64,000 nucleotides of DNA, from NCBI RefSeq assembly GCF_053078305.1, contig NZ_CP166879.1; one strand, written 5' to 3'. The position numbers and the translations under genes were made by a program. Positions 57,976 to 64,000 of this stretch are shown piece after piece. Each line of letters begins with the position of its first letter. Positions within the stretch are counted from its first letter, which is position 1. The notes under the pieces are model-generated. The model worked only from the letters and a program-made list of their open reading frames with translations, was not told the origin of the DNA and made no database searches.

Positions 57976-57998
57976 GCGACTCGATTTGCATACGGTGT
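57976..57998 (-). repeat. att-site remnant: partial copy of a tRNA-Leu (leuX-like) 3' end
   Basis: The minus strand reads GTTCGAGTCCGGCCTTCGCACCA (T-arm, acceptor stem, CCA) with one base missing relative to leuX as I recall it. There is no upstream tRNA body, so this is not a functional tRNA. Confidence 0.5.
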
Positions 57999-58285
57999 GG
58001 TGCGAAGGCCGGACTCGAACATTTAATTAAACAACTGTATTTAAATAGTTTTTGTATTTAAAAATGAATTGATGCCCCTTTTTGTGCCCCCATTACCAAA
58101 ATAACAACCTAACCTTGTACTAAAAAAGAGATTTTTCAATGTAGGCACTCTGGTTCGGCTACGCTTACCGGAGACGAACCTGAACATAAGAAATCTGAGA
58201 TAACTTCATAGTAATCATCTTTAACACTTTTGACCAATAATATCTATCATAAAGGCAGAGAAATTAATCTCTGCCTTTATTAAGG

Positions 58286-59154
58286 TCACATAAAAAGATT
58301 ATTAATTAGAGTACACTGTTGACATCCATTAATATCTACAGCTTTTAAAAAATCTGTGTTACTAATCAAAACAGCATTACTAACACCTGAAAACTGCAGC
58401 TGTGCATACATACCTAAGATAGATTTTTTTTCGTAATACTGAGATCTTCCTGTATAACTTTCACCAGTATTAGAACTTATAAATCGCCTCGTTCTTTCTT
58501 GTATCAATAAATTATTTTTAAGGAAGCTCAAAATATCTTGCTGCAATTGTTTGTTTTTGTTATGAAAATAACATAACAATTGATCCTCTAAGGTACCAAG
58601 CTGAGTGTTAACGTCATGAAAAATATACCCCCCCATTCACTCCCATTAAACTCAATAATACTTCCATTGGAGAGTTGAGTAGTATCTTCTAAACCTATCT
58701 CATTTTTAATCTCTGTTATTCTGGCATCAATGCCAAGTTCATCAGCATCAAAAAAATATAAAAATCTATATGCAATTTCTATACTGAAGTCATCTGTACC
58801 AGAAAGTTCTTTATACATAGTGACTAACTCAGCCCTTTCACGACTTCTGCCATCACCATTTAGATTATGTATAAAAATTAAGTTCCCGTTATGATAGAAA
58901 CAAACAGAAGGTAGTTTTGGCCCGTTTGGCTGAAAGCCAAGTTTTTTATCTGGAATTCTTACTTGACTTAGTTCTTTTTCAAAGCGTTTATCAAACGGTG
59001 GAGGTAATTGACCAATTTTAAGATCTTGAAGTTGGAATCCATTAACTAAAAGAATTCTGCTAAGAAAAGCGACGTCATGCTGTCCTTCACAAAAGGCAAC
59101 TATGACTCTATTATAAGATACACTCACAATTTTAGCCTCTAATATCAAGATCAA
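58286..59154 (-). pseudogene. Toprim-like (OLD/AriB-like) gene split by a frameshift at a G7 tract
   Basis: ORFs 58588-59154 and 58286-58636 overlap across a C7/G7 homopolymer (58628-58634). The N-terminus has VAFCEGQHD and a later FFDADELG (Glu … DxD), suggestive of a Toprim fold. Fusing the frames gives an approximately 300-aa protein. Confidence 0.45.
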
Positions 59155-61369
59155 TATTTTTTATCAAATAGCCAAATCTTTCGCCATCAGCCCTTTTCAC
59201 TACTACTTTATCGTCAACTTTGCTTAACTGAAATCCAGTAATGCAATCATTATTATAATCATTATTTAAAAAAGCTCTGATACATTCACCCGAATGTGAC
59301 GTAAGGAACACTTGCACATTGAAACGTTCTGCAAGTTGTTGCGTAAATTTAGTAAACTCCAATAGTAAACTATAATGAATCGCAGTTTCAAATTCATCAA
59401 TAAAAAGTACACCGTTACGACATGCAGCAAAAGATAAAGCTATATAAAAGATGCGCTGAATACCCTCTCCATAAGAAGTAAGATCGAAACTTCTGTTAAA
59501 ATCATATGCTGATTCTACGATAAACCTTTTGAGCTCCATGTCTTCAGTAAATCTGACATCTTTTATCGTTGGCTCAATTTTATTCATGAATTCAATAACA
59601 AGGCCGATAGCGGATTGTATATTTAAATCATCTGATTCTGAGTCAGTTACAGACGTTAAATTTGCACCTATACTTTTGTTATAATCAGTGAGCAAATCGT
59701 CTATATCGTAGAAATAAGGGCTTTTAAATGACGATGAACACAAATGCGAAACTTGATCAGCGTTCCTTCTCATACGTTCATGGATAAAAGTATGGACTGT
59801 GTTATTTCTAAATTCTCCATCAATGCTAGACTTTAAGCTATAAGATGCTATATAGTCATCTTGTTTATCAATTGAAGAATCATCATATTTAATCATTTCA
59901 ACAGTAACATTACTATCATCAAATACTCCTGACAAGATTATTTTATCTTGGAAAAGAGCATTTAGCAATGTTGGACTCAAAGTACTGATTTTATTTTTTT
60001 GCCTAATAAGATTAAAATGCGATGAAATATCATTACGCTGCGTCAATAAGTAAATTGCTTCAAGCAATGAAGTTTTTCCAGCATTATTAAAGCCAGCAAT
60101 GATATTAATCTTATTGAAATTATCCAATGAGAAGTTTTTAAAGAATTTATATTTTTTGATATAAATGGATTTAAAATGTTTTTTTACTCCATACTCAAAA
60201 TTAGTTGTATAGTTTCCTCCTTCGATATTTATAGCCATCTGCTTTGGCATTATTTGTGTTAGTTTTTCTTTTGCATCATCTAATAAGCGCAAATCCTCTT
60301 GGTTTATGAGGCTACTATATAGATTTAAATCCTTTAAGGCGTCTTCAAGCTTGCTTAAAGCATTTTTATAGTTTTGCTGATTTACTGAACCGCTCGCAGC
60401 TAATCCTCTTGCAAGGCTACGTTCATCCTCCATTACCTTCAAGGCTTTTTCATTATTGATGAACAAAGCAAGATCTCGTATCTCAAGAGATTTAGTAATT
60501 ATAGGTTCTAGCTCAACGTATTCACCATTACTTTCCTCTTCAATATCATCTTCTAGCTCATTTTTCTCAAGGTATTCATCTGTTTTAGAGATCCACGAAA
60601 AAAGCCTATCAAGATTCACTAAATTTCTAGCATAATAACCGTTATCACTCCAGTCTAACCAAGATTTAATTACAGGCTTTTTGATTATTTCTTCAAAAAT
60701 ACCAAACATACTTGGTTCGAATTGCTCACCATACTCACTTGTTTTATATAAGGAAATTAGATTATAAACTCTAAGCATAGAGCGAAGACGCGTTTTAGAA
60801 ATACCGAGCGAACTAACTAGCTCATCTTCTTTTTCAACATACTCATCTCGAGTTTTGTCTTCATATGGTTTTAAAAAATCATAAAGCAGTTTGGACTGAT
60901 TATATGTTGACCACTTTTTATTACCACTTATATGCTTTAATCCCATTACAATCAGATGTTTTTCAACATCTTGATTATTATGGATTTCGAAAGGAACACT
61001 TCTAAAAATAGATGGATCTAGTTTTCCAATATCAAACCCCTTTTCATATGCTTCTTGCAATGCTTTCAGCGCCGTTACACGACGATTTCCCTCAAGGACT
61101 AAATAATTGTTATCTCCTAAATCCTTTACTTGAATAACATCAACATCTAAGTATCCATTAGATTTAAAACTTGCTATTAGATCTTTGATATTCTCTTGTC
61201 TATTTCCTTCTATAAAAAAGCGAGTCCTACGCTGAATTGTTGGATCTAGCATGTCCTTTTCTGAGACTGGCTTGTGCTGGTCATTGTCAACAAAACGGTA
61301 GTTATTAGGATCTAGAAATAAATTTTTTAAATTTTTGCTAATGCGCGGGCGAATTTGCTCGACATTCAT
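59132..61369 (-). CDS. Fusion of an N-terminal ParB/Srx-like domain with a C-terminal ABC-type (SMC/RecF/OLD-like) ATPase
   Basis: 745 aa. ParB box LVLEGNRRVTALKAL near the N-terminus; Walker A GFNNAGKTS, Walker B LFIDEFE and H-loop LTSHS in the C-terminal half. Low GC. Confidence 0.6.
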   Translation of the reverse strand: MNVEQIRPRISKNLKNLFLDPNNYRFVDNDQHKPVSEKDMLDPTIQRRTRFFIEGNRQENIKDLIASFKSNGYLDVDVIQVKDLGDNNYLVLEGNRRVTALKALQEAYEKGFDIGKLDPSIFRSVPFEIHNNQDVEKHLIVMGLKHISGNKKWSTYNQSKLLYDFLKPYEDKTRDEYVEKEDELVSSLGISKTRLRSMLRVYNLISLYKTSEYGEQFEPSMFGIFEEIIKKPVIKSWLDWSDNGYYARNLVNLDRLFSWISKTDEYLEKNELEDDIEEESNGEYVELEPIITKSLEIRDLALFINNEKALKVMEDERSLARGLAASGSVNQQNYKNALSKLEDALKDLNLYSSLINQEDLRLLDDAKEKLTQIMPKQMAINIEGGNYTTNFEYGVKKHFKSIYIKKYKFFKNFSLDNFNKINIIAGFNNAGKTSLLEAIYLLTQRNDISSHFNLIRQKNKISTLSPTLLNALFQDKIILSGVFDDSNVTVEMIKYDDSSIDKQDDYIASYSLKSSIDGEFRNNTVHTFIHERMRRNADQVSHLCSSSFKSPYFYDIDDLLTDYNKSIGANLTSVTDSESDDLNIQSAIGLVIEFMNKIEPTIKDVRFTEDMELKRFIVESAYDFNRSFDLTSYGEGIQRIFYIALSFAACRNGVLFIDEFETAIHYSLLLEFTKFTQQLAERFNVQVFLTSHSGECIRAFLNNDYNNDCITGFQLSKVDDKVVVKRADGERFGYLIKNIDLDIRG

Positions 61370-61630
61370 ATGTCACCTCAATGGTGTAGGAACTATACAA
61401 TGCAACTTTACTTGATACCTCAGCAATCAACAACTTCATGTTTTTGAAACTAAGCGCGCGCAGCCCCGCACGCCTGCCCGCTTCGCTTAACAGACTGGTT
61501 TTCATGCACCTCATAAATCGTCTCAGAAGCCACCAAACAAGGGTTTTCTCGTCAAAAATGGTGCATAAGACTCATGCGTTTTCATGCGCCATAGACATGC
61601 ACTCATTCGCTCTCATGCCAGCCAGGAAAA

Positions 61631-63276: not shown

Positions 63277-63332
63277 TTACGTCAATTGTGTCGTGGCTGA
63301 CACAAGCACACTATCGGTGCTCAGTGTGTGGT
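63277..63332 (-). promoter_or_regulatory. Two TGT-N12-ACA dyads (candidate Ogr/Delta activator sites) upstream of sid
   Basis: TTGTGTCGTGGCTGACACAA (63276-63295) and TGTGTGGTGGCTGGCACA (63315-63332), about 38 bp apart. Confidence 0.45.
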
Positions 63333-63430
63333 GGCTGGCACAACGGGCGCTTGCGGTTATTCAGACGTGGCTATGAAAGCCAGCCAGATAAAAATGCCCT
63401 CAGTTTCAGTCTGCTTTATGTCCCTGATGC

Positions 63431-63619
63431 GGTGGAACAGGTGAAACATGTGTTACAGCTTTGTTTTATAAAGCACTTATATACACTGCACCGGTGGAAC
63501 ATCGCGGGTAACAAGGTGGAACAGCGGATTGGCTGGCGTTACATCTGTTCCACCTCACTATTTCAGAAGGTGGAACAGGTTCAGCCCTGTAAAATACGGT
63601 TGTTCCACCTGTTTCACCT
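63431..63619. repeat. Iteron cluster: about 8 copies of GGTGGAACA/TGTTCCACC in both orientations (P4 crr/ori-like)
   Basis: Perfect copies at 63431, 63493, 63515, 63546 (rc), 63569 and 63601 (rc), plus variants GGTGAAACA (63441) and TGTTTCACC (63611). P4 crr/ori carry TGTTCACC repeats bound by the alpha protein. Confidence 0.6.
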
Positions 63620-63652
63620 GTTACCCTTAATAAATAAGACTCACGCAAAGCC

Positions 63653-64000
63653 TTAACCCGGCACCTCGCTGTTGAAGACATAGAGCCTGCGGGGATTCAT
63701 CTCTGGCGGGCGAATGGTTGTCTGGAGTTTGCCATCAGTGGAGGGCAGCAGGTATCCACGATCTGCGCACAGACGAGCCACCTTGCGCGGGTCAAATCCC
63801 CTGCAGATTTCTTTCCAGCCGGACGGCATGACATAGAACGTAGTGACAGCTTCCGTGCCCTGCGCGGTACTGCCTTTCTCCACCCTGCGCCAGCCCACCA
63901 TATTGCCGGGGCGGTTGCGCTCGTCATACCAGTCTGCAAAGCGGCTGTACTGATTCGCGGTAAAGAAACTGCGAACCTGCTCCAGTGCGGCAATATCTTC
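63653..64000 (-). CDS. 3' end of a gene open to the window edge; possibly the C-terminus of a P4 alpha-like primase-helicase
   Basis: The frame is open from 64000 to the stop at 63653 (…MVGWRRVEKGSTAQGTEAVTTFYVMPSGW…RLYVFNSEVPG*). The assignment is by position next to the iterons only. Confidence 0.3.
   Translation of the reverse strand, partial: EDIAALEQVRSFFTANQYSRFADWYDERNRPGNMVGWRRVEKGSTAQGTEAVTTFYVMPSGWKEICRGFDPRKVARLCADRGYLLPSTDGKLQTTIRPPEMNPRRLYVFNSEVPG

Follow-up and report, generated by a model that had tools for sequence, protein, structure and literature searches.

The locus considered here, positions 57998–64000 of a 64,000-nt stretch of contig NZ_CP166879.1 (assembly GCF_053078305.1), raises the question of whether a run of phage-satellite-like genes ending at a displaced tRNA-Leu 3' end is one arm of a P4-family element integrated at leuX, as the original prediction for this DNA held, and if so how closely it follows P4. 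The 64,000-nt stretch as a whole is called the window; positions are counted in it, and the element is read on its minus strand. At a probability of roughly 90%, the region is the attR-proximal half of a ~12.7-kb E. coli phage satellite of the P4 family, integrated into the leuX 3' end. The element type is already known: this is an ordinary member of a common family, abundant in databases, with an atypical order of modules and a broken candidate anti-phage cargo. On the minus strand the arm opens with the tail of a primase-helicase gene, followed by iterons, dyads, sid, psu, a single-domain Ogr/Delta gene, a terminator, a cos region, the cargo, and an att copy.

Support for this reading includes the homology of Sid, Psu, and Delta to those of P4, an att core accompanied by arm-type sites, and the integrase and leuX of close relatives. 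The original prediction would have fallen had the proteins shown no similarity to those of P4, or had no integrase and tRNA-Leu lain beyond the window; P4-homologous proteins are present, and relatives have both the integrase and a tRNA-Leu(CAA).

The sid-psu-delta operon and its promoter

The first complete gene of the arm (62509–63252, minus strand) is a sid homologue of 247 aa, a putative capsid size determination scaffold. Aligned over 226 residues, its product has 24% identity with P4 Sid (E = 7e-13), and the two belong to one PHROG (6165); its best full-length match among solved structures is the Sid of 7jw1. Psu comes second, over the C-terminal half only, which fits the known structural kinship of Sid and Psu (PMC7552001). 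A tblastn search of this Sid against a phage collection that includes P4 gave no match, the similarity being too weak for such a search. The psu homologue (61961–62512, minus strand; 183 aa) shares 4 nt with sid at the sid stop, and its product is 29% identical to P4 Psu, shares PHROG 6366 with it, and matches 3rx6 at E = 1e-13. Next is an Ogr/Delta zinc-finger activator gene (61683–61964, minus strand), read as 93 aa from a GTG or, in the PGAP annotation, 90 aa from an ATG at 61955. Its translation consists of one domain, with 45% identity to the N-terminal half of P4 Delta, and contains an exact CX2CX22CX4C motif, which is the signature of the Ogr zinc finger (PMC3931495). The operon closes with an intrinsic terminator (61663–61641, minus strand), a 9-bp stem followed by a T run. 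The four core ORFs (open reading frames) in the window have the same lengths as in relatives.

Upstream of sid is a region resembling the P4 late promoter Psid (63287–63342, minus strand), with two TGT-N12-ACA dyads (63325–63342 and 63287–63304) that are 89% alike over 19 nt. They lie 38 bp apart center to center, with 34 nt to the sid ATG, and both values are identical to those of P4 Psid, where sid is preceded by just two such dyads, at 9493–9510 and 9531–9548, and has its ATG at 9583. The motif is not enriched across the window (10 observed, 15.7 expected), so the case for the dyads rests on their position and their match to P4. The exact agreement in spacing and in the gap to the ATG argues for a conserved late-promoter architecture rather than chance. 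By direct comparison with P4, the two dyads would lie at about -55 and -18. At 63359–63372, 36 bp upstream of the distal dyad, the left half of the dyad recurs a third time in weaker form (79%), with no full TGT-N12-ACA, and another TGT-N12-ACA match, probably by chance, is located within the zinc-finger region of the delta coding sequence (61926–61943).

Each of these parts (the Sid-like gene preceded by dyads, the Psu-like gene, the single-domain Ogr/Delta zinc finger, and the terminator) had been named in the original prediction, and each is borne out; compared directly with P4, all three proteins are homologues. The P4 order that it gave, sid, delta, psu, is also correct, and the order here does differ from it. 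As a peculiarity, the swap does not hold up: sid-psu-delta is a published common variant, the most frequent exception to the P4 order, seen in 20% of Type A and B P4-like elements (PMC8628076).

The att end and the element in relatives

On the other side of the cargo, 57998–58020 (minus strand) reads GTTCGAGTCCGGCCTTCGCACCA, the final 24 nt of tRNA-Leu(CAA) less one G. This 23-nt attR core (GTTCGAGTCCGGCCTTCG-CACCA) is the tRNA 3'-end copy that had been noticed originally as lacking a tRNA body, and indeed there are no tRNA genes in the 64-kb window. The 18-nt exact att core has no second copy there either, and nothing in the window thus points to tandem islands within it. Two tandem P4-integrase arm-type repeats, ATGGGGGCACAA and AAAGGGGCATCA, lie on the attR arm (58070–58093, minus strand) and depart from the P4 arm repeat, GTGGGGGCACAA, by a single mismatch. 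They share a GGGGGCA core and are ~50–70 nt inside the element, in the same position relative to the att core as in P4 attP. In most genomes with the same element, similarity ends at 57998/57999.

Beyond the window, the element was read in three E. coli chromosomes. LH09-a and STEC276 have the whole arm at 99% identity, while ESY002 has only the core, at 98.8%, with different cargo. In all three, a P4-type integrase gene and an intact tRNA-Leu(CAA) gene, i.e., leuX, are found ~6.7 kb past the position of the window end, which is where the integrase and intact tRNA had been expected. The minus-strand order in these relatives is leuX, int, a hypothetical gene, a helix-turn-helix (HTH) regulator, an Icd-like ORF, two small ORFs, a DUF5375 gene, and an 890-aa TOPRIM/DUF927 gene, followed by iterons, sid, psu, delta, cos, cargo, and attR. 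The sole gene on the opposite strand is a small one of the YlcI/YnfO family, which follows the HTH regulator and precedes the Icd-like ORF. The integrase is 72% identical to P4 Int, the DUF5375 gene is a cnr homologue (40%), and the Icd-like ORF shows 52% identity to the final part of the P4 "cI" ORF. The 71-aa HTH protein has a weak match (24%, E = 1e-5) to P4 ORF88, of Vis/AlpA type, and falls in PHROG 66 (excisionase/regulator). The att cores are 12,716 bp apart, compared with 11,624 bp for P4.

Membership among P4-like satellites has been framed by seven core components (Moura de Sousa & Rocha, PMC8628076): Sid, Psu, Delta, Alpha, Integrase, AlpA/Vis, and Epsilon. Sid, Psu, and Delta, the last as an Ogr-family C4 zinc finger, are present in the window, and no Epsilon was found in the relative searched for it (see below). 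Two functional hallmarks, P2-type cos flanks and a late promoter with TGT-N12-ACA activator sites, are also found.

Such satellites occur in ~44% of E. coli genomes (PMC8628076). With presence scored as at least 80% of 61400–64000 (the junction of the alpha end, origin, sid, psu, delta, and cos) in one piece, this junction is present in at least 304 of 5,426 complete E. coli genomes, 34 of which have it with the same cargo. The same backbone is found elsewhere with other integrases, sites, and cargoes, among them retron St85, DRT3, and a 398-aa protein without known identity. Because the cargo differs on one backbone, the slot between cos and attR behaves as a hotspot. A truncated copy of the lineage lies beside tRNA-Thr, a different insertion site, in E. 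coli 52F4 (11201–12318); its alpha gene lacks the N-terminus, there is no int, and its cargo is retron St85 with a RipA-family gene. The published analysis of P4-like organization covered Types A and B only (PMC8628076), and SatelliteFinder has since distinguished an Escherichia Type C subfamily in which epsilon and alpha are absent by profile (PMC10085698). The present lineage is probably that subfamily, and may correspond to Type C#var01 of PMC8628076.

The cargo and its frameshift

The region between the att core and the cos region (58021–61452, 3.4 kb) has a G+C content of 32.5%, compared with 51.6% for the element core. The cargo module predicted here is present (58286–61369), as two adjacent genes matching both PADLOC models of the system PDC-M38. 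The first, PDC-M38A (59132–61369, minus strand; 745 aa), matches its model end to end at E = 0, with more distant matches to AbiLi (1e-36) and AriA (4e-18). ParB-type signals occupy its N-terminal part, and Pfam places an ABC-type ATPase (AAA_21/AAA_15) over residues 400–697. The second, PDC-M38B (58286–59127, minus strand), has a Toprim fold by fold comparison, with invariant E14, D127, D129, and E181. It is frameshifted, and split into ORFs 58588–59154 and 58286–58636 that cover profile positions 2–168 and 163–278, respectively; the intact LH09-a version matches the profile at E = 9e-139. A strong hairpin after the operon (58250–58281, minus strand; -20.9 kcal/mol, z = -5.6) is a probable terminator.

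The PADLOC, Pfam, and ParB matches suggest that the pair is a candidate ATPase sensor plus Toprim nuclease effector, similar to OLD, PARIS, and AbiL. PARIS, AbiL, and OLD/Gabija-type systems likewise have an ABC-type ATPase gene followed by a Toprim-fold gene with conserved E and DxD, and likewise occur in the P4 hotspot. PARIS (AriA/AriB) has the Toprim fold in common with this pair, but the cargo ATPase is only distantly AriA-like, and PDC-M38B matches neither AriB nor DUF4435, so membership in PARIS is not indicated. No mention was found in the literature of PDC-M38, or of DUF3226 together with "defense," and the two cargo proteins are not listed in the supplements of Rousset 2022.

The frameshift is due to the loss of one C from a run of eight, leaving seven at 58628–58634. 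Because the run is intact in all 34 of the other complete E. coli genomes with the same cargo, the lesion is either an inactivating mutation private to the source genome or a homopolymer sequencing error. It could also be taken as a sign that the whole is a decayed, non-mobilizable P4-like remnant, i.e., a cryptic island. The lineage does include truncated copies, insertion sequences are found in relatives, and the left half of the element in the source genome lies beyond the window. Against this, sid, psu, and delta are undamaged, as are the promoter dyads, the iterons, cos, the att core, and the arm sites, all with 99% identity to 34 genomes, and the single lesion is in a homopolymer of an accessory gene, where it may not be real. 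Decay of the element as a whole is therefore considered unlikely, although of the alternatives it keeps the most weight.

The replication gene and iterons

The arm begins, at the window end, with the last 115 codons of an alpha-type replication gene (63653–64000, minus strand), which encode a C-terminal winged-helix domain and run off the end. The ORF matches PHROG 1139, "DNA primase," at E = 9.6e-10, and is the 3' end of the 890-aa "TOPRIM and DUF927" gene in 99%-identical elements. This C-terminal part of the protein has no similarity to P4 alpha. The C-terminus was expected to resemble the P4 origin-binding domain, a candidate that was rejected: its best predicted fold matches are SaPI (Staphylococcus aureus pathogenicity island) Rep, TcpK, and Cch. 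In relatives, residues 1–316 are a P4-type primase, 38% identical to P4 alpha, and residues 410–640 match the SaPIbov Rep and SCCmec Cch helicases by sequence. The protein is a chimera, a P4-type primase joined to a SaPI-Rep-type (DUF927) helicase and winged helix. The "alpha-like" gene end of the original prediction stands as the tail of a replication gene, but its likeness to P4 alpha is confined to the primase domain, beyond the window.

Directly after the alpha stop codon is a ~190-bp iteron region, a putative origin of replication (ori; 63431–63619). The predicted cluster is well supported: six exact copies of GGTGGAACA (63431, 63493, 63515, and 63569 on the plus strand; 63546 and 63601 on the minus strand) and two one-mismatch copies, GGTGAAACA (63440 and 63611), are arranged in both orientations around an AT-rich stretch. 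The expectation for GGTGGAACA is 0.42 copies per 64-kb window, and none of 100 shuffles reached seven. The P4 type I iteron is GGTGAACA, from which the iteron here differs by one inserted G. This is the only iteron cluster in the whole 12.7-kb LH09-a element, whereas in P4 ori and crr are 4.5 kb apart. An origin directly 3' of rep is the arrangement of SaPIs and of phage-inducible chromosomal islands (PICIs) more generally.

These features could mean that the element is a PICI-type island that has captured a P4 hijack cassette. Its backbone runs int, alpA, pri-rep, an origin 3' of rep, a hijack module, and accessory genes; the alpha helicase matches SaPIbov Rep and Cch in sequence and the C-terminal domain matches them in fold; and the sid-psu-delta-cos block is 92% like that of Sakai Sp2, a prophage of classic P4 layout, with breakpoints at cos and at the sid 5' end. 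The backbone is however also related to that of P4, in Int (72%), cnr (40%), the Icd-like ORF (52%), the Vis/AlpA-like HTH (24%), the primase domain (38%), and gene order. The PICI layout int, alpA, pri-rep, ori is found in the relatives, but no PICI packaging or capsid-redirection genes (terS, cpm, ppi) were seen among annotated genes, with no dedicated PICI models run, and the ORFs after the origin are sid, psu, and delta. Capture by a PICI is an unlikely description of the element.

The cos region and the helper

Between the delta terminator and the cargo is a stretch that the original prediction overlooked, a cos-proximal region homologous to the cos of P4 and P2 (61453–61560, minus strand). 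It aligns with the right and left ends of both phages. The blocks GTGCAT(G/T)AAAACC (here GTGCATGAAAACC), AAGCG, and CGCGCGC are in register around the 19-nt cohesive-end position and flank a divergent core. By these flanking blocks the region is of P2/P4 type, and cleavage there is predicted. An Ogr-family gene and a cos-like region are common to P2-like phages as well, but a P2-like prophage fragment or a chance assembly of motifs is refuted by the lack of structural, lysis, or gpA genes, by Sid and Psu, which are satellite-specific, by six iterons where 0.42 are expected, and by an 18-nt exact att core that is unique in the window.

Several observations weigh against a P4-family satellite at leuX. 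The integrase, attL, and most of alpha lie beyond the window, and their presence in the source genome is extrapolated from the three relatives. Identity to the P4 Sid and Psu proteins is low, 24–29%, and their functions here are putative. The equivalent of the 19-nt cos core (61453–61490, minus strand) matches the P2/P4 core, GGCGAGGCGGGGAAAGCAC, at only ~10 of 19 positions; the phage collection contains no close match to it, and no helper was found. BLASTP found no epsilon (Ash) homologue among the LH09-a element ORFs, where two small ORFs are at its position. Finally, the tRNA-Thr remnant in 52F4 shows that decay does occur in this lineage. Two further searches were also negative: comparing the complete arm with the phage collection by megablast gave no match, and Rfam identified no RNA family in 54000–64000 and only a tRNA in the LH09-a element, hence no CI-type RNA was detected.

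Because the core matches that of P2 and P4 at so few positions, the cognate helper is probably not P2 itself; a matching helper would carry the variant GGGCAGGCGTGCGGGGCTG. The sole phage matches to the cos stretch are weak and fall in the gpA–portal interval of two P2-like phages, the place of the P2 cos. The Sakai Sp2 core is nearly identical, differing at 2 of 19 bases. Among E. coli genomes, 855 have a cos match and 858 any match to the core segment, and the listed matches are in unannotated DNA; with such close numbers and that location, the cos matches look like satellites themselves rather than helpers. Similarity to most related satellites ends at 61453–61456, immediately after CGCGCGC. 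A boundary between conserved and variable DNA beside cos has been described for the P4 hotspot (PMC9122126), and by its position this break is that boundary.

A possible life cycle

The features above could fit together as follows. A P4-type tyrosine integrase, seen only in the near-identical relatives, would recombine a 24-nt core that is the leuX 3' end; integration would leave the imperfect core copy at 57998–58020, with arm-type sites alongside. Alpha, with its P4-type primase and SaPI-Rep-type helicase and winged helix, may bind the GGTGGAACA iterons directly 3' of its own gene and so start replication. When a P2-like helper infects the cell or is induced, an activator of the Ogr family would act at the two TGT-N12-ACA dyads to turn on sid, psu, and delta, and the single-domain Delta of the satellite could in turn activate the late genes of the helper. 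Sid would serve as an external scaffold forcing small capsids, and Psu could both decorate the capsid and inhibit Rho. The helper terminase would then cut the cos region (61453–61560), packaging the satellite. The slot between cos and attR is a variable hotspot for defense genes, filled in this copy by PDC-M38 with its second gene frameshifted.

The host flank

Just outside the element, the host-side leuX terminator at 57963–57982 (minus strand) comes after the displaced leuX 3' end, and serves as a boundary marker. Between the nan/fim region and attR, 54500–57997 has 33% G+C and two hypothetical genes, unlike the LH09-a flank. This stretch occurs, with coverage of at least 80%, in 330 E. coli genomes, and could represent a further accessory or defense islet at leuX. 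One of its ORFs (55050–57320, minus strand), AT-rich and 756 aa long, contains an exact 222-bp tandem duplication (56405–56849; 2.0 copies, 100% match) that adds 74 in-frame residues. In the E. coli genomes most similar here, the alignment covers 3,326 nt rather than 3,548, so the second copy is missing from them. No Pfam, PHROG, or PADLOC family was found for this ORF.

Comparison with known systems

A single copy of such an element adds little. The lineage, on the other hand, shows that a sid-psu-delta-cos block can be joined to another replication backbone and orientation with its promoter geometry and att machinery unchanged. It has a PICI-like one-directional layout, a replicase combining a P4 primase with SaPI Rep, a single origin in place of ori plus crr, and a defense hotspot between cos and attR; whether together these mark a distinct sub-lineage of P4 is an evenly balanced question. 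P4-like satellites carry much of the variable anti-phage arsenal, in which PDC-M38 is an unvalidated defense candidate. If the sub-lineage is real, surveys anchored from psu to the integrase, as in the methods of Rousset 2022, would largely miss the cos-attR hotspot, which for that reason may be an under-mined source of defense systems, candidate PDC-M38 being an example. The cargo slot tracks cos and not the integrase, which matters for the automated detection of satellites and of defense hotspots.

Compared with P4 (NC_001609), the element has the same leuX site, att core, and arm-type repeats, a similar Int (in relatives), and homologous sid, psu, delta, cnr, Vis-like, and primase-domain sequences. 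It also shares the two-dyad geometry of Psid, the cos flanks, variable cargo next to cos, and a similar size (12.7 vs. 11.6 kb). The main departure is the global layout, more than the psu/delta swap. A P4 prophage is ordered int, cargo, cos, psu, delta, sid, ori, the left operon (with alpha as its last gene), crr, and attR; here the order is int, alpA, cnr, alpha, ori, sid, psu, delta, cos, cargo, and attR, with nearly all genes co-directional. The sid operon lies downstream of alpha and in its direction, where in P4 it diverges from the left operon. The integrase gene is next to the left operon, and the cargo is between cos and attR, not between cos and int. Delta is a single domain, whereas P4 Delta is a tandem double, and the gene order is sid-psu-delta, not sid-delta-psu. 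The helicase and DNA-binding part of alpha is of SaPI-Rep/DUF927 type, epsilon was not detected, and the cos core is divergent.

A closely related hijack cassette is in the P4-like prophage Sp2 of Sakai O157:H7, with 90% amino acid identity for Sid, 88% for Psu, and 90% for Delta, nearly the same cos region, and the same sid-psu-delta-cos-cargo order. Sp2 differs in having the P4 layout (int, cargo, cos, delta, psu, sid, and a divergent left operon), a 777-aa P4-type alpha, and an integrase that is 36% identical and uses another site. The 92% similarity between the two extends over 61450–63165 only, from cos through most of sid, and breaks within the first ~30 sid codons and at cos; these breaks suggest that the cassette was exchanged as a module.

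With the SaPI and PICI modules (SaPIbov Rep, 8tch; SCCmec Cch, 5dgk) the element shares the helicase core, the C-terminal winged helix, and iterons directly 3' of rep, as well as an island layout of int, regulators, pri/rep, ori, interference genes, and accessory genes. It differs in that a Zn-ribbon/Toprim primase of P4 type is joined to the helicase, and in that the interference genes are the sid, psu, and delta of P4 together with a P2-type cos.

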